Origin: Chiloscyllium plagiosum
Lineage: Eukaryota
Assembly: GCF_004010195.1 (NCBI RefSeq)
Contig: NC_057718.1
Span: forward strand, 66,750,590 to 66,813,217
DNA length: 62,628 nt
Reading direction: 5' to 3'
A program made the translations under genes and the position numbers. This document shows, piece by piece, positions 1 to 46,509 of this stretch (position 1 is the stretch's first letter; each line of letters begins with the position of its first letter). Under the pieces are notes generated by a model. That model had not been told where the DNA came from, did not search any database, and saw only the letters and a program-made list of their open reading frames with translations.

Positions 1-3000
1 TTTTTTTTAATTCCATATCATCCTGTAAAATAGGTAATATTGCAATTTCTGACCACGCTGCTGTATATATGGAAACTAAGGTGAGGAACAGTGGGACATC
101 CCCTCGGCATTGGCGTATGGGCCCCTTCTTAATGAAAGATAGTAAATTTGTAAAGTACTTCTCTCAAGGATTTAAAACTTTTTTAGAAATTAATTCAGGT
201 ACAGCTAGCAACCCGTCAATGATGTGGGAGACCATCAAAGCTTACACGCGAGGCTTGATCATCTCCTACTCAGCGACCCAGAAGAAATTAAAGGGAGAAC
301 AACAGCGTCTGCTTGAAGCCCGCTTAAAAGCGGCTGAAACAGCATACACTGATAGACCTTCTATTATTAAATTGCAAAGGATTACAGCTCTTAGGACAGC
401 TCTAAATACTACACTTGCTCAAACGGCTAAGAGGGAAATATTATTTGCAAAGCAAAGGTTATATGAATATGGCGACAAACCGGGTAGATACTTAGCATTT
501 CTTGCAAAGAAAAAAAAGGCCCCTCAGACTATTACGTCTATCCAGGAAAGTACGGGTATTTTGACTCATGATCATAAAAAGATTAGTGCGATCTTTAGAG
601 AATTTTATTCTGAGTTATATAAATCACAGGATTGTGAAGATAGGACGAAGAGGATGCAGTCATTTTTTAAAAATTTGACTTTTCCAGGCCTAACTCCGGA
701 ACAAGTATCGGTCCTAAATGCTCCTCTTACACTCCAAGAAATACTTGATGCAATTAGGCAACTTCAGAATGCTAAGGCAAAGAATTTACAGAAATATTGG
801 CTGGTCCACTTATGGACATGTATAACTATGCATATAGTCAGGGCTGTCTCCTGCCTTCGCTGAAAGAGGCAAATATCTCTCTTATCCTTAAAAAAGGAAA
901 GGACCTAGAAGATTGTACATCATACAGACCAATATCCTTGCTAAATGTAGATTTTTAAATCCTTTCTAAAATGTTAGCACTGAGACTAGAAAGGATACTG
1001 CCACATATTATAAAGGAGGATCAGACGGGGTTTATTAAGGGCCGTAGATCATCCAATAATATTAGAAGGGCTCTGAATATGATTCAAGCCTGTCATCAGG
1101 GAAAGATACCAAGAGTAGTGGTTTCATTAGACGCGGAAAAGGCACTTGATAGGGTCGAATGGTCATATTTGTTTTACACATTGGAAAGGTTTGGCGTTGG
1201 ACAGGTGTTTACCAAATGGGTCTCAACATTGTATAGTGATCCCAAAGCAGTTGTGGTTACCAATGGATTAGGTTCGGATAGCTTCAGTGTGGGTAGGGGC
1301 TGCCGTCAGGGATGTCCCCTCTCGCCATTGTTATTTATGCTAATAATTGAACCATGAGCAGAAGCTATACGAGCTGATCCTAATATAGTGGCCCCTTTAT
1401 GCAGATAAAGGGTATTCCTCAGTAACCCTCTGATGTCCATACCTCGCCTAATCCAAGTTATCAATACATTTAGTGCATTCTCAGGCTATAAAATTAATTT
1501 ATGAAAATCGGAGGCTATGCCAATGGGTGGTCTTGCTATGATACCCCGCTTAGCGGACGGATCCCATTTTCCCTTTCGTTGGAGCCCGGAGGGCTTCTTA
1601 TATTTAGGCATTTTTATTACTCCAGTATTTGGTCAGTTGTATAAGGCTAATTTTGTGTATTTACTGGAAAGGATAAGGCAGGACCTCCAGCGATGGGGAG
1701 ACCTACGAATTTCCTGGTTGGGTAGAATAGCACTAATTAAAATGAATGTCCTGCCCCGTCTCCTATACCCTATGAGAATGCTTCCGGTGATGCTGCCGAG
1801 GACGGCTTTATGTAAATTATATGGCTGGCTGGGTTCCTTTATCTGGAATCATAGGTGGCCCCTCATTAAGCTGAAGAAGCTACAGCTTCCAAAGGCAAGG
1901 GGAGGATTGGACTTCCCAGACTTTAGGAAACATCAGTTAAGTTCCCTATTAAGTTACATAGCTGATTGGGTCTTGTCTGATCCACAATCAATCTGGTTGG
2001 ACATCGAGGCCTCTCAAGTAAAATACCCACTTATTAACCTTTTATTCTCAGACAAGAGGAAAATCATTACAGATCACTGTAAAAACCCTATAACACTAAA
2101 TACAATCAAGGCTTGGAATATAATGCGGCAAAATGAGGCCAATTCCCCTAAAACATCCCCCTATGCACCTATAGTGGGAGCATGGGGATTCCAAATATGG
2201 GATCAGGATCTGGGACTAGAAATCTCCACAGAAACGTGGAATGATATCTGGGAAAATGCTAGAAGAATTACTATTTGTAACAGAACCCAGGCTATCCAGC
2301 TGAAGATACTTCATAGGGCCCATATAGCACCGGTTCGATTGGCAAAATTTAAGGCAGGAGCATCTCCAATGTGTCCTAAATGCAAAATAGAGGTGGGCAC
2401 TCTTGTACATTGCTTATGGACCTGTCATAAGATCCGTAGATATTGGACTATAGTAGCAAGTACCCTGACAGAAATTTTAGGAACGGAAATTAAAGTGGAC
2501 GCTGTATCTCTCCTCTTGGGCTTTTCGAACTTTCCCTCCCTGGACATGTACGGGAAGAGACTATTTTCTATCCTCTCTTTCTTGCAAGGAAAAATATTTT
2601 GGTGAACTGGGCGGCTGAGGGCCCCCCTGGATTTTCAAATTGGCACAGACTAATTATGGAATGTATTCCCCTTGACTTCCTTACAAATATGGTGCACCGA
2701 AAGATCGAATTATTTTATAAAATATGGCAGCCCTTTTTGAATTACATAAATGCAGATATTTCGGCTATCCTAACAAGGGCTTTTATTTAATTGAGCTTAC
2801 AAACCTGGCTGGTCCGGGGCCCCTCGGGGGAGGAATCCCGCACGAATATGGGTTTTAATACATCTGATGTTAACACATTCCAAGCATGTAAGAGACTTAA
2901 ATATACACCCTGGTTAGTTGTAGGTTAGATTAGTAGATAGTTGAGTTTTGTTTGTTTTTTTTTCTTCTTTTTCGTTTTTTTTTGTTTTGTTTTTTTTGTT

Positions 3001-3120: not shown

Positions 3121-3430
3121 CCTTGTAGCACAATTGATAAACCTTGGTTTCCTGTCCCTCCATATTCCTATTACTTTCGAGAGAAGAGATGATTTAGATT
3201 CTGACATTGGTTTGTGTGCCACAACTGTTGACGTGATAGAGGTTAGCTAACTTAGCACAAGCAGTGATCAAAACTGCAATCATCCTGACCTTTGTGGCTC
3301 ATTAAGGTAAGTTATGGTAGTGCAGTTGTTTTGATCGTGATCAAGTATCTAACATCATGAACTTAGTGGACCCTCTTGTGATGCAGTAGTAGTGTTCCTA
3401 CCCCTGGACCAAGAAACTTAGGTTCAAATC

Positions 3431-3574
3431 TATGTTCTATGGACAAATGTTCGGCACAACATCGTGGGCCGAAGGGCCTGTTCTGTGCTGTATTGTTCTA
3501 TGTTCTATGGACAAATGTTCGGCACAACATCGTGGGCCGAAGGGCCTGTTCTGTGCTGTATTGTTCTATGTTCT
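3431..3574 (+). repeat. Tandem 68-bp duplication of a CR1-type 3' end inserted in a tRNA-derived SINE B-box
   Basis: Identical units starting at 3441 and 3509 (ggacaaatgttcggcacaacatcgtgggccgaagggcctgttctgtgctgtattgttctatgttcta); AAATC duplicated at 3426-3430 and 3575-3579. Confidence 0.85.
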
Positions 3575-3972
3575 AAATCCCACCTGCTCCAGAGGTGTGT
3601 AACATCATCTCTGAACAGAATAATTAGAAACATATTTTAATTTTTTTTTAAATTGCATTAAGTATGACCATATTGTCAAGTCTATCACCAGGAAAAGTGA
3701 TTGTGGAATCTATTGGATTATTGTAAAGATTTTTTTTGTTTTCCATCAAGGGAAGGAAAAACCACTCATATTCAACCTTAGTCCACACCATGTGGCTCAT
3801 TTTTAATGCCTTCTGAAATGGTCCAGCAAGTCACCTTTTTGAGCGAAGAATGTGGCTTCATCAGTGTAATACAAATTCATTGTGCCACTACCCAACAAAC
3901 CCTCATGCAGCTCCATAAAACAGAACCATAAAATATTGAGGTATTTCATTTAGCTTAAAGATTCTGACTTAC

Positions 3973-4102
3973 TACTGGTTCATTTCCAGCAAACTGTGGT
4001 AATGGGCATTCTGGGATGTCTCCCCATTCTTCATAATGATCTTTGCAGTATGTAACATTGTGCTCCTGAAGACTCTGACGGGTTTGTCCTCGAACAATGC
4101 GG
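3973..4102 (-). CDS. NOX3: NOX3-like coding exon 7
   Basis: Acceptor tgtgtttcag, 130 nt, donor gtaagt; RIVRGQT...HNVTYC...W...[11 protein letters not shown] (extracellular loop E with two cysteines). Confidence 0.95.
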
Positions 4103-7100
4103 CTGAAACACAGGATCGCACAATCAACTATTTACTGCCTAATTTTATGAAGGATTTTTGGAAATTAAAATATAAATTCAATATTTTAAACATCCTTATT
4201 GTTTCTATAATTTTCAATTATAGTTTTATATAATAAATCTATTACAGTTTTTCTATCACAAAATATAATTTATAATCTTTATCCTAAACATCTGTTATTA
4301 TTGATTTTAATTACAAATACATTCAGTAGAATATCAATTTAACAGTCCTTAAGATAACTTATTTGTCAGGTGAAAATGTTTGGTATGAAAACACATTGCA
4401 TACAATCTTCTTAATATCATAAATAATACAGAATTACAATATCTGTTGGGTGATGATAGAACAGTTAAAGAAGTGTCCATAGTACATTAAATTACATTAA
4501 CTTTGCTCTCTACTCAATCAAAGAAAAAAAGGTGAATTTATTAAAAACAATTAGTTTATATTTTAACCATTCATATTAAATCAGAGAATGTGTCATGGCT
4601 GGATAATGTTGCTTTGGTGGCCCAGAAGTTTAATATCACTTTGAATGGGAACTCCATCATATCAAACAATATCAAAATATCAATATAAAAAAAACACAAA
4701 TTGAAATTTGTTCAGCCAAAATATTGTCAAATAAAAAAAACTGATCTGATTAAAAGTCACTCTTATACCAAATATAATAATCTTAAACTGCTTTTATGCA
4801 TCAAGAGACGCAAGTGGTTTAAAATTGTCATAGGTTATAACATAAATGAAGTAGGCCCATCTTTCCTGTGCCAGCTCTTTCAAATAGGCAATCAATTAAT
4901 CCTACTCCCCTTCTCTTTCCCCTTTTCCCTGATCCTAAACTTTCTCAAATCTGCTGACTTTGGTGGCACAGGGAGTATGGGCATCAACCATTTCCTGGAA
5001 GTGGGTTGTTCATTTAAATATTTTAATGAAGTTGTGTGCCTCAGATTTTATTTGTCTTTCCAGTTTAACATAAACCAATTGTGTCTTCTGGATTCCTGAT
5101 AAATCAACAGTTAAAAGGAAGTGCGGATTGTTGTGCTTATCAGCGATGAGAAGCAGGAATACTTCATCCCAGCAATCCAGAAAGCCCGCTGCACCTTGAT
5201 CAAATCGCAAAACACAAAAATTTGCCTTATGATTTTTTTAACCTAGTTCCACTTCTCCCACTGTGCCCTTGCATGTTCTTCCTTTTCAGAAACTATCAAA
5301 GTCCCTCTTGATTGTCTCAATTCAAGCTATCTCTACTACCATCTGAGGAAGTGCATTTCAGTTCCTAACCATGAGAAATATCAAAATTCCAATATTTTGT
5401 ATGTTTTTTTCTCTCTGCAAAGACAAAATATATAACTGATTTAGAATCTATGTATTTATAGATAATTTTAAATGAATAAAGCATGTTTATGAAATTTTTA
5501 AAAATCCTAGCATGTTTAAAATTAAAATTGCAATCCGCTAAACACACTCAGAACACTAAATTAGACTTGTCACTTCCAGAGCTGGGTTCAAATCTAGTCA
5601 TGACTGCCAAATAATTGTCTCCTCTGTATGTGAACTGTGCCTTTGTCAACTGAATTTTCATTGCCAATTCCCACAGTGCATATATTACATATAGTATAAA
5701 ATGGTGCCATCAATTTGCCTGTATCACTTAAAAGGCCATACACTAGTTGATGTGAGAAAAAACAGCCAGATCTTCTTGAGGATAACACCACATCGAAGAA
5801 TGACCCTCCTCACTCTATCTGTTTCAAGTTCTCGACCAGAATTAGAATGCTAGTTGCTTCTGGGCTACACTCTCTGCTGTTATGTTGCCCAACGTATTGG
5901 GTCCTAAGCCACCAGTCAGGATGACTTCCGCTAAAATTCCTGTTGAGCAAAAACAGACTCAAATGCGAGAATCTCCTTAGAATTCCTTCCTCTTGATCTT
6001 GATCTAAGATTTAAGTATGTAAACTCATAGGAAACTGTAGTCTTGCATCTCCTTTAAAATGATGTATTTAGTTTATAATGTGACTCCTGAAGATTCCTAT
6101 TAAATGCATCACACTATACTTTTCTGCATTAAGTTTTATCTGCCCATATCACTATGCCATATGTATCCTCCAGAAATCTATGGCTACCTTCCTCACTGAT
6201 ACCACATTTCTATTTTGTCATCTGAAAACTTTGAAACTGTGACCTGCATAATTAAGTTCAGGCCATTAGTATGTCAGAAAGAACAACTGTAACACTGACC
6301 CCTGAGGAACTCTATTGCATACTTCCCTCCAATCTGAAAAGCACCTGCTCACTCTTACTCTCTACTTTCTCTGCCTTAGTCAATTTTGCATGCAATTTCT
6401 GTTCAGTTCTGGCATTACCCTTTTTTAATGCCATGTGCTTCAGTTTTTTCTAACAAATGCATTATGTGTACTTTATCAAAAACCCGTTGGCAATCAATGT
6501 GGACAACATCATCTACACTATGTTCAGCAACTCTATTATTTTGACAAAAGTGCTTAATCAATTTTGTCAAACACAATTTTCCTTTAACAATCCATAAAGT
6601 TTGTCATTTATGAACATTTATTTTTCTTAGCAACTATTAATTAGAAGCTACATTTAATAACGCACAAGCCCATGTTTTATGTAGATAAAAATAATTGGTG
6701 CAATATTATTTTTTCCTTTTTAATTAGGGGAAAGGGAATCTTGGAGACTTGGAAAATCGTAAGACATTGGAGCATTGAGACAAGGTAGCTGTCTCACTAG
6801 CCCGAATAAAAGGGTTTCCATTTTAAAAATGCTACCCTGGATTCACAGGTTTGACTGGCAAAGGCTAGGAAGCACCATATTTCTTCCAGGGTGGATGTAT
6901 ACCCCAAGAAGGAGCCTCCACAGAGAATGGAAAGAGGGCTTAATATCTGGAATATAGTACTGAGTAGATAGGAGCAGTGATGAAATAAATTCAATGACCT
7001 CATTCAGATGGACAAAATGAGTGCAGCTGAACATCAAATCTCAGACCCCTAACACTAGTCAGGAAGCACAACTTGACCCTATGTCTCACTCGTATTCACC

Positions 7101-10100
7101 GCATTCATGACACAAATACACACTCACAATCTCTGCATGCTTCAGCAAGCCTATTACTATTTAATTGTGTCAGACATGTCATTAAAGCATTCTGACATGC
7201 AGACATTGAATTTCTGCCCTCTTTCATGCAGGAAAATGTAATCGTCACCAGGAAACCGACTGACAAGATCAATGCAGGACCAGCACACCTGGATTCCCCT
7301 GGAAGAGATAGCGAATTGAATTATTAAGCTCAAAGCCATAGAGCCCATGACACCCACTACTGCTGAAGTCTTCATGGATGAATTTGCTGCCTTATGCATC
7401 AATTTCATTTATTCTTCATACTCATCTGAAAAAGGCTATCAATTAGAAACTGCTAATAGAGTGACCATTAGCCAACTCAACTCTTCCCATATGATTTCAA
7501 GTTTACGGACAGTCAAAAACTGCTATCTGAATAGCCACTGCAACCTCATGAAGAAGTATAAATAGATCTTTAACAAGGAAACATCATCATTTGACCTTAA
7601 AGTGGCTGCCACCTTTTCAGATATTTGCAAAAGGAATAGTATAAAGGCGACTGCAGATTTGGGATCTGCATGTGGTAAATTGGAGACGTGAGTGGGAAGT
7701 ATTGGACTGGGGAAAAAGGCCTACCATTCAATGGGAACTGCCAGAATAGTGAGACATTCACTGAATAGAATTTCTTGTTATGATTACACACCAACTCCAC
7801 ATTGATTAAGAGGTAGCTTTGCAAATGTGATAACTTTCAGATTGATGTAAAGGCTTTGAGTATCACTCTGACATTGGTGGGCCCAGCGCAAATGGCGGCA
7901 AGGCAGTGACGGAGGACATATGCCCAACAGCAAAAATGGTGCCTGAAGAGTGGCAATTTCAACATTGGTAGGGTTCAATGTAGGTGGCTGCGAGGCAGTG
8001 GCGGAGGGATGGCAACCTAGGTGTCGTTGATGATGAGCCTACTCAGGATTGATGAATTCTGTTTAGGCTATAGCTTTCTATTTTTCATCTTACTCTTAAA
8101 ACGTGGCAACAGCCAAAAAGCTTTTCACTGTATTTTACTGTTTTTCTCACTGTAAAATATACATGACATTACATAATTTATTCATTCATTTATTCAGCTC
8201 TATAGTCAATCATGCCCTGTACCATTAGGAAGCCTGATACTTGGCAAGTCCATATGTCCTTTCATTCTGGTGTTTCCACTTCAGGGAGGAATCCACTTTT
8301 CTTTTATACAAAATAGTTCTTTTAGGGTAGTACAGTTGTTCAGTGGTTAGCACTGCTGTCTCACAGCACCAGGGTCCCAGGTTTGATTCCAGCCTTGGCT
8401 GACTGTCTGTGTGGAGTTCGCACGTTCTCCCCGTATCTCCGTGGGTTTCCTCAGGATGCTTTGGTTTCCTTCCACAGTCCAAAGATGTGCAGGTCAGGTG
8501 AATTGGCCATGCTAAATTGCCCGTAGTGTTAGGTGCATTAGTTAGAGGGAAATGAATCTGGGTGGGTTACTCTTTGGTGTGGACTTATTGGGCTATTTCC
8601 ACACTGTGGGGAATCTAATCTAGACAATATTTCTATGACCTCCTTAATGCTTTTATGCATGACAAATTGAGACACATTGCTCAAGGCACTTGTGCCTATC
8701 TGTGGAATAGGATATAAGGGCATTGGTGACTGGGAGGTCTGTTCTTGCCCTAGCTTGAGGCATTAGATCATTATGGGAGAGGTGACACAACTTTGTGAAA
8801 TGTAGTCTCCTCTGTTCCCGTAATAGGACTGACTTTCCGGGAAGACATTTTGCAAGCATGGTTCTCTCTAGTCTGCATGCATGCATAACCACGCAGCAAT
8901 CTAGGGAGTACCCTGCCGGAGGAAAAGAAAGACAGTGTGTAAGCAGTGTCTGTATTAAAATTGCATATATATGGCCATGTAACATGGTACAATGGATTGT
9001 ACTATGCACAAATAGATTGCATGGAATCATTAGAATGACCACTGTGGGTAGAATCTTCTAGGGAGAACCAACATTTCTTCTATTTTCACAGAACTTTCCC
9101 TATTTGCCTGCTCCACTGCATGATACAGAACAAGTGACAATACAACTATTGCCTCCACTTATATAAGGCAGTTACTTCCCGCACAATTGGTGGTCAGAAA
9201 AGTTCTTAGTGTAAATCAACCTCTGCGTTTGGAGCGATTTTTAAAACTTTAAAGTTTGATCTATACATCAACGTCTATGAAATATTTGACTACCAGGTAT
9301 TTCATAATGAACTTTCTCCAAATTAACTACTGTAAAGGAGAAGATCACCGTTGTGTATTATTAATAACAAACTAAACTTAAATATATATAGGAATGTTAT
9401 TAGAATTTACGACAAACGTAGAACACAATACATTTTCTAAATTGACATTCAGAATGAGATTTTGTTTATAAATTAACTCAGTCCTTCTGATTCACGCAAA
9501 TAGCTTCACATTTTAACCCATCAATTTCTTCATAACTTAAAAGAAACTTTGATCAGATTTTCACTGTGTACTCTCATATCTCCTTTAGGTATACTTCATA
9601 TATCATAAATAAGGATTTAGAGCTTAAATTTACAGCATGTGCTTTGTTGTTAAAGATTAATTCATCAAAATGTGATTCAAAATGCAATAAATATCATTGC
9701 AATTGTTATAACTACAAACACCTATTTTTAATTGCTTAAATGTATAATTAGAATGTAAATGGACTCACATTTTTCTCATATGTTCACAATGCTGATGCCA
9801 CCTGTTTTGTCTGTTGTCAAGGTAAAAATTAATTGCCAGAAATGCTTACCTTTGTCACTTCAATATTGCATGAACATCATAAGCTAACAAATAAAAAATA
9901 CACTTACCCAGACCCATGAATGATGAGACCAATAAAAAATATAATGAAGAGATGGTGAGTGAACCAAAACACTTCATAAAATGACTTCACAATAACCCAC
10001 GTGGAAGAAGTCACCATCAGAACGAAAGCCACAGTAATAATGATGCCAGTCACTCCAGCTGCACTACTTAATAGCTCTTTCACTGGGTTCTGGAAATACA

Positions 10101-13100
10101 GACAGTATCACATAAGTAATCATAAGTAAGTTTTTTTCTATTTCAGAATTGAATCATGATGAACATCTCTTATACAAAAATCTATATTAAATCCCATAAA
10201 TGTAATTTCCTGGATGCCAAGCTCAAAGTAAGAAGTTTGTAAGACTTTGCTCAACTTCCTATAAATCTACCTCTAAACCTTACATTTACTTCTGACTTAA
10301 CTCAAAAAAAATGAGGAGCAAATAAGATGTGATTCTACATTTTAATTGATTGTCATATTCGATCATTAATACGACTTCAATTATGAAACATGTTAAACTT
10401 TCATTAAACATATGCAATTTCTACACACACACACAAATAGGAACTTTGTTTCTGCATAAATTCTTGACATTGGGAAGAAATATGGTAAAATTCAGAAAGA
10501 TAAACAGCTGCTAAAAACATCAATTTTACAGCGTATTTTAATTTAGTTTTGTTAAAACTAAGCAATTGATATTTGCAAACATATTATTTAAATAATTCAA
10601 ATGGCTTTCCATTTTATCAACTAAAGCTAATGATTCCATTCTTTAACCCATTATCTTCATTCCTTAGTTTAATCAATTAAGAATCCAATGTTTGTTTACA
10701 AAGCCAGGCCCTTATATAACCAGCTAAACTTAGTAATGCAAAACATAAATCATAATATTAATTAGTCACTTAAACCATTTGAAAGGGTAGATTCAACAAT
10801 TATGTACATTTAGATATTGCACAGAAATCTCCAGTTGGGTAGTGTGCATTTTATAAACAGTACATAATACTCAGATCTGTAAAAGAAAATGAATTATTAT
10901 GTACATTACTTCAGTTTTTAAACTGACAGCAATTTGTAATTTCTCTCCTCTACAATGGTTGGAATTAGAGCGAACATACCGTGTCATACGTTCTGATGGG
11001 GTTGAGGTAGTTTTCACTGGAGTTCTTCCCAATGCTGGAAAGCCTGATCAGTAAGTCTTTGGCAACAGGTGAATAACTTGCGTGGTATCGTTCAAGATTG
11101 AACAGATGTGCAATTACATGAATAACTAAATGTTAAGACACAAATATTTTATTTTCTACACTTAGGTAGCTTTATTTCATAAAATTATCTATACAATGGT
11201 TTGCAAATAGGGGCGGGATTCTAACATCATGTTGGGGATGTGGTGGGAGGTAGGAAGGCTTGTAAAATGGGGTGAGTAAGTAGTGTGTCTGTCAACTTTC
11301 CATTGTCATGTTGTTCTGCCAACACTGGGAGCTGCAGGGTATCACATAGAGAACATTAGTGGTCAAATTAAGCCACTTTAGTGGTCAAATAAGGGCTTCT
11401 TCCTGTCTTCGCTGTAATTCTGTTAATGATAGGAGGACTCCTCCATCTGGGAGAGTTTGAGATAAGTAATGGAGGCCTTTTGGCAGATCCCAAGGGCCCT
11501 TTCTTTTCAGGCAATCCTTGGTCCAGAGAGGTGTTCCTGACCAATGGCAATAATGCCACCTGACCTCGTGATTACCATCATTTTATTCAAAGTTTGTGTG
11601 GCCTCAGCACTGGAAAAAAATGTATATGTAGATATCAGATAATGCCAGCAATGATTTGGCTGTGTTGTCTACTGTGAAAAAAATTCTGCCAATGCCATTG
11701 GCAAAGAACAGAGGCTTAGGTTGTGCATTAGTTATGTACATAATATTTAGAACCTTAGCTTGAGTCAATACTTGCAGAACATGGAAGAAATTGGAGAAAG
11801 CAAATAAACAAACTGAACTCTGTGGCATTTCCAAAACTCCAGGCTTCATGAAATATAGCAGTTGAAGAGAAGCAAGAACAAATGGAATCAACAGGTAAAT
11901 GTTTTGCTGGCACAGCTTGTGAGTCAGGAAAAGAATGTATGTTTACTGTAGGTTCAGGGACACTGGGAGCTTGAGACGCAGTGGATGGCTGGCTATTGGA
12001 TCAAAGTTTCTGTAGATACATTTGGTGTCTGATCAAAGACACATTGGAGTGGCTGGACAGATACTGGGGAGTGAGTGACATCAGAGGGGCTGTTCACTTC
12101 ATGTCGAGGGCTATTGAATTAATACCAATTTATCTAAATATTTTTACAATGAATAAATATATAATTATAGTTTAAAGTGTAAGAGAAACCGAGGTTTGGG
12201 ACAACTGTAATGTCAAAAAGCAGCTTCTTCATTCAAGGTATGTGAACAGAATTATATCCTGGTTTGGAAATTCATGTGATCTGTATTTTCCAAGGCTTTA
12301 TTGATGTGTGCTAAATATGGGATTTAGATTTTGGATTGTATCTGGCTTTATCCATGAATTTGGGCAAATTAGGTCCTACTCTGAATTTCATGACATTTTG
12401 GCTGTACGTACAGGGAGACAATGTGGGGAGGTATTGACCTAATGGTAATATTAGTTGGCTATTACGCCAGAGACCCTAGGAATGACCTGGGTTCAAAACC
12501 CACCACAGCAGATGATGGAATTTGGATTCAATTAAAAAGAGTCTAATGATGACTATGAATCAATTATCAGGAAAAACACATCAGGTTCACTAATGTCCTT
12601 GAAGCAAAGAAACAACCATCCTTGTCTGGTGTGGAGGTGCCGCTGTTGTACTGGGGTAGGCAAAGTCAAAAGGTGAGGCACTGGAAAAACACAGGTGGTC
12701 AGGCAGTATTCGAGGAGCAGGAGAGTCAAGAGAGTTTTGGGCATAGGCCCTTCATCAGGAATGTGGTAGGAGGAAGGGGGCTGAGAGATAAATAGGAGGG
12801 GAGGTGGTGCTGCAGGGAAGCTAATTAGGAAGCCAGTAGGCAGATGCAGGTGGGTGATGGTGATAGATCGGAGAGGAGGATGGAGTGGATAGGTGGAAAG
12901 GAAGATGGACATTTGGGACAGTTCAATAGGGTGGTGCTAAGTTGGAGGGTTGGATCTGGGATGTGGAGGGGAGAAGGGAAGATGAGGAAACTGGTGAAAT
13001 CGATGTTAATACTGTGTGGTTGGAGGGTCCCAAGGCGGAAGATGAGATGGTCTTTTTCCAGGCATTGGGTGGCTAGGATTTGGCAATGGAGGAGGTCCAG

Positions 13101-16100
13101 GACATGTATGTCCTTGATGGAGTGGGAGGGGGAGTTGAAATGGTTGGCCACAGGGCGGTGGGGTTGTTTGGTGTGTGTGTCCCAGAGATGTTCTCTGAAA
13201 TGTTCCACGAGTTGGTGTCCTGTTTTCCCAATGTACAGGAGACAACATCGAGAGCAATGGACACAGTAGATAAGTTGGAGGAAAATCTCTGGCGGATGAG
13301 GGAGGATCCTGTGGGGCCTTGGATGGAGGTGAGGGGGGAGGTATGAGCGCAGGTTTTACACCTTTTGTGGCAGCAAGGGAAGGTGTCGACAGTGGAGGGG
13401 CGGTTGGTGGAGGGCGTGGAGGGGTGGTGGGGGGTCATGGACCTAACAAGGGATTCTTGGAGGGAATGTCCTCTGTGGAATGCTGATGGGGATGCTGATA
13501 TATCTTCAGTGGTGGGATTTGACTGTAGTTGGCAGAAATGGTGGAAGATAGGTGGAGTGGAAGGTGACGACCAGTTGGGGCTATAGAGTCATGGAGTCAT
13601 AGAGATGTACAGCATGGAAGCAGACCCTTCAGTCCAACCCGTCCATGCTGATCACATATCCCAACCCAATCTAGTCCCATCTGCCAGCATCCGGCCAATA
13701 TCCTTTTTGCAGTTGGAGGGGTGGAGTTCAAGGGCAGAGATACAGGAGCTGGAGGAGATGAGCTGGAGGGCATTATTGACTACGTAGGGTGGGGGGAGGG
13801 AGAAAATTGCACTCCTTGAAATAGGAGAAGGTATAAAACCTGCACTTTCACCTCCATTCAAGGCCCAAAAGGATTCTTCCACATCCAGCAGAGATTTTCC
13901 TACACATCTACAGTGTCCGTTGCTCTCAATGTGGTCTCCCCTATATTGGGGAGACAGGATCCAACTCGTGGAATGTTATAGAGAACATCTCTGGGACAGA
14001 CGCACCAAACAACCACATCAACCAGTGGCCAACCACTTTCCCTCCCCCGTTCCGCTCCACCAAGGACATGAAAGTCCTAGGCCTCTTCTACTGCCAAATC
14101 ACAATGACCCGACGCCTGAAGGAAGACCAACTCATCTTCCACCTTGGGACTCTCCAACCACATGGCATCAACATTGATTTCACCAGTTTCCTCATCTCCC
14201 GTCCCCCACCTCATCCCAGATCCAACCCTCCAACTCGGCATCGCCCTCTTGAACTGTCCTACCTGTCCGTCTCCCTTCTCACCTATCTGTTCCATCCTCC
14301 GCTCCAACCTATCACTATCGCTTCTGCTCCTCAGATGCTGCCTGACTTGCTGTGCTTTTCCAGTGCCTCATTTTTCGACTCTGATCTCCAGCATCTGCAG
14401 TCCTCACTTTCTCCTGGGGTGGACAAGGTTAAAAATCACATGACACCAGGTTATAGTCCAACAGGTTCATTTGGAAGTGCACATTTTTGAAATGCTGCTC
14501 CTTCATCAAGTAACAGCACACTGAAAGCTTGTACTTGCAAATAAACCTGTTGCACTATAACCTGGTGGTTGTGATTTTTAACTTTATCCTCATGTGGCTT
14601 GGTTTTGTTTAATTCCGAACACTTTATTTAAAAAAAATATGTTAAAGACCTGGATAGAGTTCAAAGGGGATTTGCTAGAATTATACCAGGAGTGAGGAAT
14701 TTTAGCTACAAGGAAAAATTAGAGAAATTGGGCTAATTCTTCTTGGAGCAGAGAAGATCAAGAGGTGACCTTATTGAAGTGTTGAACAAATTATAAACAA
14801 TTTTCACAGGATAAAGAACGATATTCTGCTTCCACCATTTGGTATGTCAGTAACTAGGGTTCACAATTTCAAGACTGTCAGCAAGAGAGCTAGGAGTGAT
14901 ATGAAGAGAAACTTTTTTTCTCAGAGAGTTGTTAGGATCTGGAATGCGTGGCCTGGGAGAATACTGGAGGCAGATTCCATAGGAGATTTTAAAAGAGAGC
15001 TGGATATATGTTTGAAAGTGGTGAATTTAGAGGGCTATGGAAATAGGGCTGGAGAATGGGAGTAGCTGGGTAGCTCTTTTGGGAGCTGGTACAGACACAA
15101 TGGGTCAAATGGCCTCCTTCTGTACTGTATAATTCTATTGTAGATACAGAAACAAATGATAACTAGTGCATCAAGAAATAAATAATTAGAACAATTTGAT
15201 TTAAAGAGGCAAGTTGGAGGGAATCCTGAAGGACAGGATGTACATGAAAAAGCAAGGACTGATTCGGGATACTCAACATGGCTTTGTGCATGGGAAATCA
15301 TGTCTCACAAACTTGATTGAGTTTTTTGAAGAAATAACGAAGAGGATTGATGAGAGCAGAGTGGTAGAAGTGATCTATAAGGACTTCAGTAAGGCATTCG
15401 ATAAGGTTCCCCATAGGAGACTGGTTAGCAAGGTTACATCTTATGGAATACAGGGAGAACTAGCCATTTGGACACAGAACTGGCTCAAAAGGAGAAGACA
15501 GAGGGTGGTGATGGAGGGGTTGTTTTTCAGAGTGGAGTGCCACAAGGATCAGTGCTGGATCCACTACTTTTCATCATTTATGTAAGTGATCTGGATGTGA
15601 GCATAAGAGGTATAGTTAGTAAATTTGCAGATGACACCAAAATTGGAGGTGTAGTGGACAGTGAGGAAGGTTTCCTCAGATTACAATGGGATCTTGATCA
15701 GATGGGCCAATGGGATGAGGAGTGGCAGATGGAGTTTAATTTAAATAATTGCGAGGCGCTGCATTTTGGGAAAGCACATCTTAGCAGGACTTATACACTT
15801 AATGGTAAGGTCCTAACGAGTGTTGCTGAACAAAGAGACCATGGAGTGCAGGTTCATAGCTCCTTGAAAGTAGAAATCGCAGGTAGATAGGATAGTGAAG
15901 AAGGCGTTTGGTATGCTTTCCTTTATTGGTCAGAGTATTGAGTACAGGACTTAGGAGGTCATGTTGCAGCTGCAGAAGGACATTGGTTAGGCCGCTTTTG
16001 GAATATTGCATGCAGTTCTGGTCTCCTTCCTATAGGAAGGACATTGTGAAACTTGAAAGGGTTCAGAAGCAATTTACAAGGATGTTGCCAGGGTTGGAGG

Positions 16101-19100
16101 ATTTGAGTTATAAGGAGAGGTTGAATAGCCTGAGGCTGTTTTCCCTGGAGAGTTGAAGGCTGAGGGGTAACCTTATAAAGGTTTATAAAATCATGAGGGG
16201 CATGTATAGGGTAAATAGACAAAGTCTTTTCCCTGGGGTTGGGAGTCCAGAACTAAACGGCATAGGCTTAGAGGGGAGGGGAAAGATATAAAAGAGTCCT
16301 ACGGGGCAACCTTTTCACGCAAAGGGTGGTGCATTTATGGAACGGGCTGCCAGAGGAAGTGATGGAGGCTGGCTCAATTGCAACATTTAAGAAGCATCTG
16401 CATGGGTATATGAATAGGAAGGGTTTGGAGGGATATGGGACGGGTGCTGGCAGGTGGGACTAGATTAGATTGGGATATCTGGTTGGCGTGGATGAGTTGG
16501 ACCCCATGGTCTGTTTCCATGCTGTACATCTCTATGACTCTATGACTCTAAGTTGTTTCAGTCTGGGAAATAAGGAACTAAAGGCCTTTAGACTAACCTC
16601 TATCAAAGAATGTTTCAAAGAACGAAGAAAAATCTTAATAACAGCAAACAAGCAAACAGCAACATAATTTTAATAATCAGCAAATATCTACCTGTATGTA
16701 GGATTATCATGTAGGCAACAATCTGATGAAATCTGATGTTTTTATCTAGTTGTTTTCTGATATTGCTTCGACAATACTGGGTTAAGAAAGTATATAAGAA
16801 CATTTTAGGTATTAGCTAATAAATTTAGTGAAAAGCATGCCCTACATTTGACAAAGGAGAAAGCTAAATAGTTTTAAGTCACCTCATGAATGCAGTGAAA
16901 TCGTTACCAAGTGATAGAAGTTCAAGATTTTCTTGAAGTTAAGATTCTCTAGTAATCTAATTCCAAAAATCCTGACAAAATGGACGGAATCATCCATTTT
17001 GCAGTTAACATCTGGCATTTGTTGTGGAAGTGGGAGTTACTGGCATCGTCCTTTCTCACATAGTCAGGTCACATGGGATTCAGGGTGAGTTTGCCAATTG
17101 GATGCATAATTGACTTAACAGCAAGAGACAGAGTAATGGTGGAGGGTTGCTTTTCAGAATGGAGGCCTGTGACCAGCAGTGTTCTGCAGAGTTTGGATCT
17201 GGGTCCTCTTTTGTTTGTCATTCACATAAATGATTTAGATGAGAATATAGTTCGTAAGCTTGCAGATGACACCAAAACTGGAGGCATAGTGGACAGTGAA
17301 GAAGGTTTTCTAAGATACAAAGGGATCAAATAGGTCAATGGGCTGAAAAAAGGCACATGGAATTCAATTTAGATAACAGCAATGTATTGCATTTTTGGTA
17401 CAACAAACAAGGGTAGGGCTTATACAATTAATGATCGGGCCTTGGGTAGCGTTGTAGAACGGAGGGACCAAGGGATGCAGGTACATAATTCTTTGAAGTT
17501 TGTGTCACAAAAAGACAGGATGGTTAAAAAGGCATTTGGAACGCTTACCTTCATTGTTCAGTCTTTTATGTGTAGGAGTTGGGAAGTTGTATTGCGGTTG
17601 TGCAGGACATGGTGAGGCCTGTTCTGGAATACTGTGTCCAGTTCTGTACACCCAGTTAGAGGAAGGGGATATTATCAAGCTGGAGAGGGTCCAGACGTGA
17701 TGATTGAGTGTTGCCAGGGTGTTTGCCAGGGTGTTGCTAGATATAGAAGATTTGAGTTGTAAAGAAAGGCTGAATAGGCTGGGACTTTTTTATTGTAGCG
17801 TAGGAGATTGAGAGGCGACCTAAAAGAAGTTTATAAAATAATGAGAGGTATAGGTAGAGTTAATGGTAGTTGTCTTTTGCCAACGATGGGGGTTTTTAAG
17901 ACTAGATAGAATATTTTTAAGGTGAGAGGAGAGAGATTTAAAAAAGATACAAGGGGCAATATTTTTACACAGAGGGTGGTTCGTGTGTGGATTAAATACC
18001 TGAGGAAGTGGTGGATGTGGATATAATTACAACATTTAAAACACATTTGGATAGGTACATGAATAGAAAAGGTTTGGAGGGATATGGATCAAGAGCAGGC
18101 AGGTGAGACTAATTTAGTTTGGAATTATGTTCGGCGTGGACTGGTTGGACCGAAGGATCTGTTTCCATGCTGTGTGATTCTATGACTCTATATCTCTATG
18201 ACAACACGTTACATATGCTGGCAGGGAGAAAACGGTCAATCTTATATGGCCAACAGGCAAAAAGTTCTTACCCCAACTAGGACCTTCTGAAGTTGAAGGG
18301 CACCTGGCCCTTCTCTTACTGCAAGCGAGGAGGGAACATTCAGGCTCTGTTGGTATTCCCGCACAGTGACCAAGCAGCTCAAGATGGCTAGGTCTAGAAT
18401 CCTGCAGTAATGTCCTTGGGCTGAGATAATTGACTTCTAGCAATCACAATTATCTTTATTATGTTTAGAATGACTCCAAACAATGGAGAGACTTGCCACC
18501 AGTTCTGCTGGGGCTCCTTAATACCATATTATGTTGTTAAGTTAAAGACAGTCACTTTCATCTCATCTTTGAAATTCACTTCATGTTTAACTGAAGCTGA
18601 AATGAGGTCAAGAATTGAGTGACATTGCAAAATCCAAACTGAACAGGTTATTGTCTGATGGACCCTTTCTATCACTTTACTGATAATCAAGAATAGAGTG
18701 AGTTAGATGTAAATAATCACTATTTAAAAAAGCAATTTGGCGCTCCTTGAAGTCTTGGCTAGAAGTTATCTATCAATTAAAGAACATGGAGATAATTTGA
18801 ACTTTGAATGATATTTGCTACATTTGCTTATATAAAATGGTTGCAATGCTTCAATTCTAAAAGTAATTCAATTGTTTCACAAAGGCAAGTTCTTTCTTCT
18901 TTATTTTTATCATAATTCAACAGCTCATGCTAATTTACAAATTTCATCTTACCCTCTGGTATACCGTAAGGATTTAACATTTCTATCATTACAGATAAAT
19001 CTAATATATTTGATCTTTTCTGAGTAAAACTATGCCTAACTGTAGCAAAGGGTATAAACCTTAGGGTACTTTGATAAAATGATACGTACATTACACGATC

Positions 19101-19916
19101 CTCTCAAAAGTGAAATCAGATTTCGACTGACTGGCAGCAGAATCAGGAGACTGTTGAAGTTGAGACACATTGCAGATGCTCTTGACCAAGCCAATGCTGA
19201 CTGATAGGAGGAATCAGACAAACATCTCTTGCTTACTACTAAAGGTAGATTAATGGTTCAACTAGATTAAACATAGTGAAATAACAATAACATAACACTT
19301 ACCCCAAGCATTGCTCGGGTATAAATATATGCTGCTTCTTGTTCATACAGGAAGAAAGTATGGAGAAAAAGTAAAGTGTTGACTCCCAACCACAACAACT
19401 GTAACAAAAGAAGTTTTTATTTCACAAACTAGAAAGTCATGGCTTTTCATTTTGCAAGTTTGTCTAATTTATTTTAAATGGATTACTGTGGGGTAGCAAA
19501 TGTTTAAAACATTGCAAAGGAATTTTATTTTAATAATAAATTTTAAATGTGCCCAAGTTAGCAACTAGGTTCACACTTTACTTAATAAACAGATGCAAAT
19601 TAAAACCTTATGGTGTGAATATAATGTATAACATGATGTGCAACCTGTAGCTTTTGCTTTTCAATAATTGATCTAGATTTCTCAAAGAATGCGGTTAGTT
19701 CTGTTTCTTTGTAAACTTTCCAAAACTTACTTAAGCCTATAAAAAAACTAATTAACATTAAAGGTTCAGTGCTAAAGTTAGTTTTATTATTACTTGTAAA
19801 AATGAGTTCAAATATAGACTGATGTAACTCTACAGGAAGCATATTGATGAATTAACAAGTATAAAACTTACTAATATGATAAGCTTTGGACCATCATTCA
19901 CAAACCAGTTTGCCAT
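3973..19916 (-). CDS. NOX3: NADPH oxidase catalytic subunit, NOX3-like; spliced 5' half (coding exons 1-7), continuing beyond window start
   Basis: Seven GT-AG exons (45,96,111,85,146,182,130 nt) join in frame to 265 aa: [265 protein letters not shown]. Heme histidines H101, H115, H206, H219 are present. NOX1-3 family membership is near certain; the NOX3 paralog call rests on recalled diagnostic residues. Confidence 0.85.
7050..7800 (+). mobile_element. Highly decayed LINE remnant, possibly RTE-like endonuclease region
   Basis: Fragmentary resemblance to an APE-domain coding segment; no intact ORF. Confidence 0.3.
8325..8622 (+). mobile_element. HE1-type V-SINE (older copy)
   Basis: tRNA-like head (cagtggttagcactgctgtctcacagc...ggtttgattcc), V-core (gtctgtgtggagttcgcacgttctcccc...ggtttcct), aatct tail. 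Confidence 0.85.
9908..10089 (-). CDS. NOX3: NOX3-like coding exon 6
   Basis: Acceptor tgtatttccag, 182 nt, donor gtaagt; AGVTGIIIT...[11 protein letters not shown]...IHG includes H206 and H219. Confidence 0.95.
10980..11125 (-). CDS. NOX3: NOX3-like coding exon 5
   Basis: Acceptor tcttaacatttag, 146 nt, donor gtatgt; [14 protein letters not shown]...YLNPIRT includes H115. Confidence 0.95.
12428..12630 (+). mobile_element. tRNA-derived SINE, non-HE1 family (also about 26090-26540 and 40310-40620)
   Basis: A/B boxes (cctaatggtaat...gggttcaaaaccc) and a core ggttcactaatgtcctt...ccatccttgtctggt shared by the three copies. Confidence 0.6.
12672..14413. mobile_element. Penelope-like element family A: inverted (minus) copy plus direct (plus) 3' copy, interrupted by a CR1 3' end (13583-13703)
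   Basis: GIY-YIG region on both strands ([16 protein letters not shown]..., FREHLWDT...[12 protein letters not shown]...[17 protein letters not shown]). Decayed hammerhead on minus at about 12735-12758. Confidence 0.85.
14414..14590. mobile_element. Penelope-like family B terminal fold-back palindrome (its left end is split off to 12631-12671)
   Basis: Inverted arms ...gttaaaaatcaca...ggttatagtccaacagg / cctgttgcactataacc...tgtgatttttaac; same family as 45421-45645. Confidence 0.75.
14645..15139 (+). mobile_element. CR1 LINE 3' fragment
   Basis: [14 protein letters not shown]...FKRELD C-terminus plus 3' tail. Confidence 0.85.
15213..16550 (+). mobile_element. CR1 (HER1-like) LINE, 5'-truncated
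   Basis: [40 protein letters not shown]; (ctatgact)n tail. Confidence 0.93.
16692..16776 (-). CDS. NOX3: NOX3-like coding exon 4
   Basis: Acceptor ttcttaacccag, 85 nt, donor gtagat; [16 protein letters not shown] includes heme ligand H101. Confidence 0.95.
17063..18190 (+). mobile_element. CR1 LINE, 5'-truncated
   Basis: [15 protein letters not shown]; ctatgact tail. Confidence 0.9.
19090..19200 (-). CDS. NOX3: NOX3-like coding exon 3
   Basis: Acceptor ctcctatcag, 111 nt, donor gtacgt; [37 protein letters not shown]. The preceding intron is only 102 bp. Confidence 0.95.
19303..19398 (-). CDS. NOX3: NOX3-like coding exon 2
   Basis: Acceptor cttttgttacag, 96 nt, donor gtaagt; LLWLGVN...YTRAMLG. 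Confidence 0.93.
19872..19916 (-). CDS. NOX3: NOX3-like coding exon 1 ([15 protein letters not shown])
   Basis: ATG at 19916 in tcaATGG context with an in-frame TGA two codons upstream; 45 nt; donor GTAAGT. Resembles NOX N-termini (MGNWAVNEG...). Confidence 0.9.
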
Positions 19917-20090
19917 TGATCACGTAGAGCTGTGGCTTCAGTCTGTTCTCAGCTCCTTTACAACTGGTGTTCTGTTTTCTACCTACCCATCACTGTCATC
20001 TGTTGTTGAGGGGTAGAATTACTGAGGGTGCACTCTGGGAATCACAATCCTCTTTGATGGTCTGGTATTCACATATTTATTAAGATGTAG
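19917..20090 (-). promoter_or_regulatory. Putative 5'UTR/proximal promoter of the NOX3-like gene
   Basis: Non-repetitive sequence upstream of the ATG. TATA-like TAATAAATAT on the minus strand near 20073-20082; TCF/LEF-like CTTTGAT at 20052-20058. Motif evidence only. Confidence 0.3.
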
Positions 20091-20707
20091 TACAATATTA
20101 AGAATTCCAACATCCCATAGTGTAGGCAATTATTAAAAAAACAAGCTCAAGCACTGGGTCTCAGTGAGTAAATTGATTTCTTTCATCTCATCAGAGGTAA
20201 GAATCCTATGTAAGAAGAGCTTACTCATTCTCAACAGAACTTCTATTGGTTACACTGCCAGATCCATTCAGTCAGCCAAACTGAATAAATAGCTTATGAA
20301 GTGGAAAAAATACATTGTGCAGTATGATGTATGTTTCTAGTTTTGCAGTAAATACATGCAACAGAAAATACTGTGTTCCACTTGCTCAGTTGAGTGTGTT
20401 CTTATCTTTGTTGATTAGAGTCCCATAACAACCATTTATATTAATATGGCACCATTTATGTAAAACATCTCATGATGCATTATAATAGCTTTACAGGTGT
20501 TAGTGTGCAACTACAATAAGTTCTTAAGAAGGGTTAAAAAATGTAATCCTTTATTATGAGAGGAATTAAAAACAAGGGATGTTATCTTTCAGTTATGCAC
20601 CGCATTGGTGAGACCATATTCCCAATACTGTGTGTAGTCTTGTCTCCTTATCTAAGGAAGGATATAAATGTATTGAAGATTGTTCAGAACATGTTTGCTG
20701 GATTGGT

Positions 20708-21390: not shown

Positions 21391-21675
21391 TGCTGCATGG
21401 GAAATTGAGACTGCATTTACCAGAAATTACATTAGGCAAGGTCCATAAATACAATAATGGGGCTAACCAGCATTTTGATGCTGGAAAGGGTAAATTTCAA
21501 TTGATAACACCAAATTCTGGAGAACGCGGTGGGTCAGACAGGCCTTGTGTGAAGTTCTGTGCTATGTTGGAGGCAAACTCCTCCATGCTCCTTGATAGTT
21601 ACAGCAGGCTTCCTTACAAGTTATCTTGGATGCCAAAGCAGCAATGGTCTTTGTGTGCATATTCATCTTACCTAT

Positions 21676-23808
21676 CGTGATGTGGAGGAGCCGGTATTGA
21701 GTTGGATCAACAAAGTTAAAAATCACACAACACCACTGCCGCCCTTGAACCCCACCCCTCCAATTGCAACAAATACAGAAACCCCGGTCCTCACCTTCAA
21801 TCCAACCAACCTACAGATACAATGCATCATCCTCCACCATTTCCGCCACTCACAAACAGTCCCCACCACCAGGGATATTTCCCTTCCCACTCCTATCTGC
21901 ATTCTGCAGAGACCATTCCCTCTGCGACTTCTTTGTTAAGTACATGACCCCGCACCAACCCACCCTCCACTCCTGGCACCTTCCCCTGCCACCGCAGAAG
22001 TAGAAAACCTATGCCCACATCTCCCCCCTCACCTCTGTCCAAGGCCCCAAAGGATCCTTCCACATCAGACAGAGATTTACCTGTACTTCCACATATGTCA
22101 TCTACCCTGTGTCTGTTGTTCTTGATGTGGTCTCCTCTACATAGGGAAGACCGGTCGCCAACTTGTGAAATGTTTCAGAGAACATCTCTGGGACACATGT
22201 TCTAAACAACCCCACCGCTCTATGGCTGAACACTTTAACTTCCACTCCCACTCCACCAAGGACATGCAAGTCCTGAGCCTCATCCACCACCAAACTCTAG
22301 CCACCCAATGCATAGAGGAAGAATGCCTCATCTTCTGCCTTGGGACCCTCCAGCCACATGGGATCAATGTAGATTTCATCAATTTCCTCATTTGTCCTCC
22401 CCCATCTTATTCTATATCCATCCTTCCAACTTGGTACAGCCGTCTTCAACTGTCCTATGTGTCCACCTTCCTTCCCACCTATCCGCTCCACCCTCCCCTC
22501 CGACCTATCACCATCACCCTCACCTTCATCTACCTTTCGCATTCCCAGCTACCTTCCCCTCAGCCCCCCCACCCCCTTTCATTTATCTTGCAGCCACCCC
22601 CTCATTCCTGATGAAGAGCTCATACTCGAAACGTCGACTCTCCTGCTTCTCGGATTCTGCCTGACCGGCTGTGCTTTTCCAGCACCACACCTCTCAACAG
22701 GTTTATTTGGAAGAACTAGCTTTCAGAGTGCTGCTCCTTCATCAGGTAGCTGTGGAGCAGGACTATTAGACACAGAATTTATCGCAAAAGATTACAGTGT
22801 CATGCAACTGAAATGATATGTTCAACAACCTAGATTGCTGTCAAGTTTTTCATCTTTTAGAGCAGCTTGCAGGTTTCAGTTCATTAATATGTAAATCCAG
22901 AACGTCTTTTAAGTCAAATTCTCGGGATAACTTAAGGGTTTTTTTTTAAAAAAGGTGATATCTCAGCTCAGACAATGCATTCAGTTACCATGAGGTACCC
23001 ATGAGGATCGCCTCAGCGGGGACCTTGGGTTCATGTCACACTACAGGTGACCCCACTGCACTATACACTCTCTCATACACACACACTCTTACATACTCAC
23101 ACATTCATGCAGATCTTCTCTCATACACATGCTCTCTCTCTTATACACACACAGACACACTCCCCTCACTCACATCCACGCACACACCCTCTCACAGGCT
23201 TATACTCCATCACACTCACTTTATGAAGCATGCATGCACACAAATGCACATTCACACTCACACGCAAATGCGTGCTCTCTCTCTCTCTCTCTCTCACATG
23301 CACACGCACACACATAGTCTATGAGGTGAATTTGTACTGCAGAATTATATTTGCAGATACATTCTATTTTGCTCAAAAAGCACACAATCAGCAGGCAGTC
23401 AATCCATATAACATTTTATAAATTCCACTTTGGAAATAGAACCAGTCTGACAGATTGGAATACAGACAGATTCTAATCTCACATCTTTCATGCATTGTCT
23501 GAACTGAGATGTCACCTTTTTTTTATAAAACCTTAAGTTAACTCGAGAATATGACTTAAACGAAGTTCTGGGATTTACGTATTAATGAACCAAAACCTGC
23601 AACCCATTCTAAAAGATGAAAGACTTAACAGCAATGTAGGTTTGCTCAACATATCATTTCAGTTGAATGACACTCTGATCCTTTGCTATAAATTCTGTGT
23701 CTTAGGCTCCTGCTCCACAGCTACCTGAAGAAGGAGCTGCAATCTGAAAGCTAGTTCTTCCAAATAAACCTGTTGGATTCTAATCTGGTGTCGTGTGATT
23801 TTTTAACT
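21676..23808. mobile_element. Penelope-like family B insertion (inverted terminal copy, ORF end, CA-rich 3'UTR, direct terminal copy) containing a nested family A element
   Basis: Inverted arms 22695-22981 and 23490-23775, continued by 21700-21735 against the right arm end. ORF tail THEDRLSGDLGFMSHYR* at about 22997-23050. Hammerhead motifs 22717-22745 (minus) and 23725-23753 (plus). Confidence 0.8.
21736..22698 (+). mobile_element. Penelope-like element family A, 3' part (GIY-YIG endonuclease plus terminal repeat)
   Basis: [34 protein letters not shown]...[17 protein letters not shown]; hammerhead CTGATGA...GAAACGTC at 22608-22639. Confidence 0.88.
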
Positions 23809-39324: not shown

Positions 39325-39997
39325 ATCATGAAAAAGAAGCGGAGTGGAGTGCAAGCCCCTGCCTGCATCAGTGGAACTGAGGTGGAGATGGTGAAGAGCG
39401 TTAAGTTCCTAGGAGCGAAGATCACCAACAATCTGTCCTCGTCCATGCCGATGCAATGGTCAAGAATGCACATCTCTACTTCTCCAGGAAGTTAATCAAA
39501 TTTGGCATATGCACAAGGACTCTCACCAATTTTTACAGATACACCATTGAAAGCATCTTATCTGGATGCATCACTGCAACTATTCATCCCAAGATTGCAA
39601 GAAACTACAGAGTCGCGAACATAGTCTAGTCCATCACGCAAACCAGTCTTCCATCCATTGACTCCATCTGCTCTTGAAAGCAACCAACATAATCAAAAAA
39701 TGTCTTATACTCCAGTTATACACTCTTCCACCCTCTTCCATTGGGTAAAATATATAAAAGTTTGAATACACTTATGAACAGATTCAAGTACAGCTTATTC
39801 TCGCTGTTATTAGACTTTTGAACAGATCTCTCAAATGTCAATTTTGATCTCTCAATCTGCACCTTCTCTGCAGCTATATCACTGTACTCTGCACCCAGTT
39901 CAGCTACCTGATGCACTTATAATACGATCTGCCTACTAGCACGCTTAACAACACTTTTCACTGTATCTTGGTACACATGATAACAATAAATCAAATG
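39325..39997 (+). mobile_element. Rex1/Babar-like LINE fragment inside an old minus-strand CR1
   Basis: FYRYTIESILSGCIT... segment; aaatc tail. Confidence 0.75.
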
Positions 39998-46264: not shown

Positions 46265-46509
46265 ATGGAGGACACTTCGCAAAATGTTCTTAAAAAAAAT
46301 AAAGTTGAGCCAGCAGCAACGACGTTTCTGCTAAACGAAACCTTGAAAGGACGCAGTTTGGGAAAAGCTCGACTGGCCATTCCAGATATCCGTCCTGGGC
46401 TCCGCACGGGATCTGCCGCCTTCCACGGTAGCAAGGCGGCAATGCACAAAGATTACATGAAAGCAATACAAACCGATGAGTTTGCTATCCACCCTTACAG
46501 TACGTTTAG
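46265..46509 (+). CDS. First coding exon of a divergent HCN-like cyclic-nucleotide-gated channel (HCN domain; candidate HCNL family)
   Basis: Encodes MEDTSQNV...IRPGLRTGSAAFHGSKAAMHKDYMKAIQTDEFAIHPYSTF(R). The last 41 aa align without gaps to the recalled HCN1-4 segment [41 protein letters not shown]. Ends TTT AG|gtaaga, the phase-2 intron position of HCN exon 1. Lies in the CpG-rich segment. Confidence 0.8.

Follow-up and report, generated by a model that had tools for sequence, protein, structure and literature searches.

A stretch of 62,628 nt of Chiloscyllium plagiosum DNA (NC_057718.1, positions 66,750,590-66,813,217, forward strand; the whole of it is referred to here as the window) carries on its minus strand the first seven coding exons of what is almost certainly, judging from its sequence and its position in phylogenetic trees, a true orthologue of mammalian NOX3, the head-tilt gene of the mouse. 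The NOX3 motifs were placed by a six-frame scan of the window, whose DNA is AT-rich, of vertebrate type and about 35% self-repeated. Once spliced, exons 1-7 amount to 795 nt and encode 265 residues with consistent phases and without a stop codon. The product matches the RefSeq protein P0314 (XP_043552756.1, named 'NADPH oxidase 3-like' in a shark) at 265 of 265 positions; therefore, neither the gene nor its cartilaginous-fish origin is a matter of chance. The protein of a sister species, P0324, is complete with 567 residues and differs from the window product at 2 of the 265 positions. The coding exons of NOX3 in the window are the following:

19872..19916, minus strand: exon 1, 45 nt, with the ATG at 19916, in agreement with the N-termini of P0314 and P0324
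19303..19398, minus strand: exon 2, 96 nt, first transmembrane helix and loop A, placed by its AG/GT boundaries and by alignment
19090..19200, minus strand: exon 3, 111 nt, second helix and start of the B-loop with R54, R73 and R80
16692..16776, minus strand: exon 4, 85 nt, B-loop with heme ligand H101 (codon 16728-16726)
10980..11125, minus strand: exon 5, 146 nt, heme ligand H115 (codon 11120-11118), H119 and loop C
9908..10089, minus strand: exon 6, 182 nt, D-loop with Val195 (codon 9990-9988) and heme ligands H206 and H219
3973..4102, minus strand: exon 7, 130 nt, loop E cysteine pair C241/C254, corresponding to NOX2 C244/C257

An earlier note on this DNA, made from the letters alone, had claimed seven open exons with all four heme histidines, and its coordinates proved exact; the seven exon sizes were verified as well. 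The six introns between exons 1 and 7 all have a GT donor and an AG acceptor, and a GT donor also follows exon 7. The exon plan is presumably the same in NOX2/CYBB and NOX1. A DNA contig of run X2 covers exon 1, its three differences from the window being all intronic, and the X2 contig spanning 18879-19377 has the same letters as the window over exon 3. In several other shark and ray models (P0001, P0313, P0318 and P0323, for example) the 45-nt exon 1 was overlooked and the N-terminus is non-homologous. The start codon aligns with residue 1 of NOX2 and NOX3, and no EF-hand or peroxidase extension precedes the first helix. The heme ligands H101, H115, H206 and H219 align with mouse NOX2 H101, H115, H209 and H222, and a membrane domain with four such histidines is what defines the NOX/ferric-reductase oxidases according to PMC1940245. 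By alignment, R54, R73, R80, H119 and the loop E cysteine pair are in place, the corresponding NOX2 cysteines forming a disulfide in PMC9711523. The equivalents of R80 and I197, which these two articles link to p22phox pairing (PMC1940245, PMC9711523), are likewise retained. No NOX3 exon was found past exon 7 in the window by tblastn with the full shark NOX3 as query. The window carries the membrane half only, the gene running on beyond base 1 with exons 8-13 outside.

At the database level the gene is not a discovery, as it is already annotated, one model being identical. With exon 6 as query, the best 6 of 50 matches are NADPH oxidase 3 or 3-like proteins from epaulette shark, skate, chimaera and stingray. 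The top match belongs to a cluster of 15 proteins from 13 species of shark, 13 of the proteins being named NOX3-like, and NOX3-labelled proteins occur in at least 22 cartilaginous-fish species. In P0314, a model without the last exon, Pfam recognizes Ferric_reduct, FAD_binding_8 and NAD_binding_6. Among the best 120 of 1299 matches to a skate NOX3 query there are NOX3-named proteins of coelacanth, lungfish, reedfish, sterlet and 12 amphibians, to which a 13th amphibian (exon 6 query) and bichir and paddlefish (look-ups) are added. Of the major jawed-vertebrate lineages sampled, all but teleosts and gar/bowfin have NOX3; no NOX3 of teleost, gar, bowfin or Xenopus is among the matches listed, which is weak evidence of absence. 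The NOX3 proteins of cartilaginous fishes (such as XP_007903694 of chimaera and XP_032882247 of skate) and of coelacanth are 67-99% identical to the window product and do not differ from it in kind. Mammalian NOX3 (human P0069) is 56% identical over the window part, falls in the same clade and shares with the window product the heme histidines, the B-loop arginines, the loop E cysteines, the loop C length of 91 and the NOX3-type motifs. It differs in having Arg198 where the window has Val, and the cartilaginous-fish orthologues end in Ile, Val, Leu, Met or Gly instead of Phe. No paper on shark NOX3 was found in a literature search whose coverage was poor for subscription journals and excluded figures and several supplements.

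Since NOX3 names in the databases are automatic labels, trees were built. The first (IQ-TREE, LG+C20+F+G4) used the 265 columns of the window itself and 49 rows hand-picked from named matches, comprising 9 cartilaginous-fish NOX3 (window included), 14 bony-vertebrate NOX3, 11 NOX2, 10 NOX1 and 5 unnamed outgroups. The window falls within cartilaginous-fish NOX3 (support 99/92), which is sister to bony-vertebrate NOX3 (95/90), the two joining at 100/97, and NOX1 and NOX2 together form a separate clade (99/92). The order inside NOX3 mostly agrees with the species tree. In approximately unbiased (AU) tests the grouping of shark NOX3 with NOX1 (p=4.6e-5) and with NOX2 (p=8.1e-5) was rejected, each forced grouping costing about 50 log units. 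The second tree was made from the 302 C-terminal columns, which do not overlap with those of the first, P0324 standing in for the window protein. It gives the same three clades, with NOX3 at 95/84 and NOX1 plus NOX2 at 100/96, bony-vertebrate NOX3 not being resolved as one group (75/16). The orthology to NOX3 proposed in the earlier note is thus upheld by two trees on non-overlapping halves of the protein and by the AU tests; the maximum-likelihood check suggested there groups the protein with NOX3, NOX1 and CYBB groupings being rejected. If the root holds, NOX3 would have split off before the separation of NOX1 and NOX2 in both trees, the opposite of its being the youngest of the three.

The residue motifs on which the orthology had been proposed were counted over 16 cartilaginous-fish NOX3, 116 bony-vertebrate NOX3, 30 NOX2 and 122 NOX1 entries, isoforms and fragments included, labels being the source names except for a few unnamed or conflicting entries assigned by hand. 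All seven motifs listed are found in the window product. As markers of NOX3 they are of unequal value. P[VIM]SRN (16/16 cartilaginous and 96/116 bony NOX3) and N[LIM][EK][RQ]YH (16/16 and 75/116) stand, as each scores 0/30 in NOX2 and 0/122 in NOX1; W[SA]RASA fails, being present in 95/122 NOX1 besides 16/16 cartilaginous and 110/116 bony NOX3 (0/30 NOX2). HN[VI]T[YF]C is found in 16/16 and 75/116 NOX3 and in no NOX2 or NOX1, a relaxed form occurring in four NOX2. YLNP[IV]RT occurs in 16/16 and 72/116 NOX3, 4/30 NOX2 and 0/122 NOX1, and LDKN[IL]RFH in 8/16 and 1/116 NOX3, 0/30 NOX2 and 0/122 NOX1. The sizes of exons 5 and 6 had also been taken to point to NOX3. The spacing from H115 to the third heme histidine encoded by these exons amounts to 91 residues for the window product, for 15 of the 16 cartilaginous-fish proteins and for 108 of 111 scorable NOX3, and the same 91-residue loop is found in sturgeon CYBB and chicken NOX1; hence, the sizes were rejected as a marker and are not diagnostic.

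The placement of the shark gene bears on the age of NOX3. The founding survey (PMC1940245) reports no Nox3 in Xenopus or teleosts, has the gene arising after fish and amphibians, and describes NOX3 as the youngest NADPH oxidase, tied to life on land. The late origin is restated in PMC5372347, in PMC8033005 and in a 2024 review (PMC10886416). The NOX1-3 duplications were already put at the vertebrate base in PMC9421330 and bioRxiv 2024.07.25.605162. As shark NOX3 is an orthologue, its origin lies at or before the jawed-vertebrate ancestor, as the earlier note had argued and as follows from the grouping with NOX3 in the trees. The sequences thus indicate that NOX3 goes back at least as far as the jawed vertebrates and that its absence from zebrafish and pufferfish would reflect loss, not a novelty of land vertebrates. 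Loss on the teleost line is suggested by the published negative searches and by the absence among the matches listed.

What appears to be new here is the lineage-wide loss, in cartilaginous-fish NOX3, of two flavin-contact residues that are kept in shark CYBB. Ten positions conserved in bony NOX3, NOX2 and NOX1 are changed in most cartilaginous-fish NOX3, and two of them touch the flavin. One is Val195 of the window, which aligns without gaps with NOX2 R198 and with R1214 of human DUOX1, the residue that binds the FAD phosphate according to PMC7794343. The D-loop arginine is present in NOX3 of only one of 22 cartilaginous-fish species (a sawshark), versus 14 of 14 of their CYBB proteins; elsewhere it is found in 106/116 bony NOX3, 30/30 NOX2 and 121/122 NOX1, and eight clusters of lizard NOX3 have Thr or Ala instead. 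In two catsharks neither arginine of the D-loop pair remains, the residues being Met-Glu. The other position, outside the window, is that of the terminal Phe570, which none of the 20 cartilaginous species with a recognizable end retains (2 of the 22 have no such end); they have Ile, Val, Leu, Met or Gly there. Replacements can be seen among the orthologues P0324, P0002, P0461, P0066 and P0446. The phenylalanine is kept in 14/14 shark CYBB, 111/116 bony NOX3 (sturgeon and paddlefish having Ile), 26/26 NOX2 and 118/122 NOX1, the four exceptions in the latter having aberrant ends. In NOX2 it sits between FAD and NADPH in the active form, and its role is disputed (PMC11647612).

Cartilaginous NOX3 therefore departs from the canonical NOX2-type flavin site, both the D-loop arginine and the terminal aromatic being replaced. 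These two residues do not define NOX3, to judge from the lizard and sturgeon proteins, each of which lacks one of them. NOX2/CYBB (gp91phox; PDB 8GZ3, 8KEI, 7U8G) and NOX1 share with the window product the six-helix, two-heme core, exon 6 matching NOX2 with E=6e-17, but they form clades separate from the window and both keep Arg198 and the terminal Phe. All 16 cartilaginous-fish NOX3 proteins have the FAD- and NADPH-binding motifs, apart from the last two motifs, which are found in 15, and all other catalytic motifs are kept. The identity between shark and chimaera is 76% for NOX3 and 82% for CYBB. With these motifs kept and this degree of identity, the cartilaginous NOX3 proteins look tuned and constrained rather than relics. 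Owing to the loss of the D-loop arginine and of the terminal phenylalanine, shark NOX3 probably has a weaker hold on FAD than NOX2 and is subject to less gating.

Several observations weigh against an ordinary, complete NOX3. Raw identity is 61.7% to human NOX3, 59.1% to mouse NOX2 and 62.3% to shark CYBB (one species). The trees contain neither shark or fish NOX1 nor lamprey, and the root depends on five unnamed outgroup proteins, three of them long-branched. P0314 ends after 526 residues, with the last exon, the final NADPH motif and the C-terminus missing. Two flavin-contact residues are replaced, and in DUOX2 the D-loop change R1211C lowers H2O2 output (PMC4550764), R1211 being probably the same residue as R198 and R1214. 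The nearly equal raw identity to NOX3 and NOX2 would suit a gene that is in fact shark NOX1 or CYBB, or a fourth duplicate resembling NOX3, and so would the motifs shared with NOX1 and the failure to retrieve a shark or fish NOX1 from the representatives, by cluster look-up or with a bird NOX1 query, whose best 120 of 1261 matches are tetrapod-named or unnamed. This identity is nevertheless scarcely credible, as both trees and both AU tests oppose it and the species named for P0314 has its own separate CYBB (P0472, 57% identical over the 265 residues). Nor does the window hold an XK-like exon (tblastn best E=0.82), a weak point given the long intergenic distances of sharks. The shortness of P0314, otherwise identical over 265 residues, and a Ser at position 64 in place of a conserved Cys could instead signal a copy that is truncated or decaying in this species, with exons 1-7 open and the 3' end lost or broken. 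Such decay is very unlikely: P0324, with its two differences, is complete, all splice sites of the window are canonical, and a gap or model error would be the simpler cause of the short model. Ser64 (codon 19152-19150, minus strand) was rejected as a sign of decay, for although Cys is found in most NOX2 and NOX3 and in 15/16 cartilaginous-fish NOX3, Ser is the usual residue of NOX1 (101/122), and an independent DNA contig from run X2 has the same letters. The earlier description of the gene as apparently intact thus holds for exons 1-7, open and canonically spliced, and is unproven for the rest, where P0314 stops at residue 526.

The full account, in which the gene is a true NOX3 orthologue, an old duplicate encoding a p22phox-type oxidase of the ear that was lost in teleosts, is considered likely. 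That shark NOX3 is an active oxidase is predicted with good confidence from its sequence. As in the rest of the family, it would pair with p22phox and pass electrons from NADPH through FAD and the two hemes to oxygen, superoxide being released outside the cell. In sharks the otoconia form masses and the endolymphatic duct opens to seawater, so that the same role in the ear is the best guess; by analogy, a role in otoconia is favoured, with some reserve. Superoxide would most likely be released into the endolymph from non-sensory epithelium, as in mouse, and would help to cross-link the otoconial matrix protein. According to PMC10886416, the mouse produces Nox3 in non-sensory cells that face the endolymphatic sac and duct, and otoconia are abolished when the gene is lost, the mechanism preferred there being that otoconin-90 is cross-linked by oxidation. 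Among the roughly 2% and 6% of reads covered from two single-cell poly(A) runs, none falls on 18250-20700 of the window, a sample too small to bear on expression. The main rival to the otoconia role is that a less tightly gated enzyme would serve to defend the duct. A true NOX3 could have been retuned or repurposed into a constitutive, flavin-exchanging (or weak) oxidase whose main job is not otoconia but, for example, antimicrobial protection of the duct. Both flavin-site replacements in the cartilaginous lineage, set against their retention in all 14 CYBB, the ungapped alignment with the phosphate-holding DUOX1 arginine, and the bacterial SpNOX, in which replacing the equivalent Phe by Ser increases kcat but also causes loss of flavin (PMC11031084), would fit such retuning. 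However, other NOX3 also vary at both sites, as the lizard, sturgeon and paddlefish proteins indicate, and a change of NOX2 Phe570 reportedly had little effect in one cell study (PMC11647612). Repurposing is held to be unlikely, and the otoconial oxidase is retained as the preferred reading.

Upstream of NOX3 the window contains one further candidate coding exon:

46265..46509, plus strand: probable first coding exon of an HCN-like channel gene (not NOX3), ATG to GT, 245 nt

The exon and NOX3 are arranged head-to-head, with 26.3 kb between it and the start codon of NOX3, and the DNA around it is rich in CpG (observed/expected 0.99 at 46001-46500). The frame 46217-46510 matches Pfam Ion_trans_N, the HCN N-terminal family, with E=5e-5 (1e-5 for its last 36 residues), below the curated cut-off. 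The splice donor of the exon falls where exon 1 of HCN genes is expected to end. The exon has no match in the PDB and in the Atlas only unnamed clusters below the recognition mark, and no second HCN-like exon was found within the window. Of the 85 stop-free frames of at least 62 residues in non-repeated upstream DNA that were compared with Pfam, three gave matches: Ion_trans_N, ALKBH8_N (39405-39626), which is probably a retroelement piece, and a weak permease (E=0.004). Human NOX3 is not known to have an HCN-like gene upstream. The bichir CYBB model P0168, the first half of which we take to be XK-family-like and fused to CYBB in keeping with XK-CYBB adjacency, has no match in the window. The synteny marker of NOX3 elsewhere is its position after TIAM2, TFB1M and CLDN20, according to PMC1940245. 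A scheme combining the oxidase and the channel may be imagined, in which a self-running, loosely FAD-bound NOX3 with a rebuilt flavin site would share its regulatory neighbourhood with the head-to-head HCN-like channel, of non-standard pore, that would balance protons or charge in the ear, teleosts having lost the oxidase when moving to solid otoliths and tetrapods the channel; it is regarded as decidedly improbable.

Repeated DNA accompanies the gene. In NOX3 intron 7 there are a broken LINE-like element at 3-2605 (plus strand), with a piece of RVT_1 (Pfam) at 959-1357, and a tandem duplication of about 60 bases at 3429-3575. Repeat fragments in and upstream of NOX3 lie at 12661-14590, 15213-16555, 17062-18201 and 21553-22816, which from their translated motifs we take to be CR1/L2-like reverse-transcriptase and Penelope-like pieces. 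An assembly gap of 165 N at 42017-42181 falls within a repeat.

The claim of a late origin of NOX3, still in print, is reversed by the shark data, although the correction is modest, because databases carry the NOX3 label and PMC9421330 and bioRxiv 2024.07.25.605162 already date the duplications early. The presence of the gene in sharks opens the comparative question of whether NOX3 tracks otoconia rather than solid otoliths. Moreover, the lineage-wide loss of Arg198 and Phe570 constitutes a natural experiment on residues with contested roles in NOX catalysis, and these flavin-site changes make the NOX3 of cartilaginous fishes a variant worth assaying.

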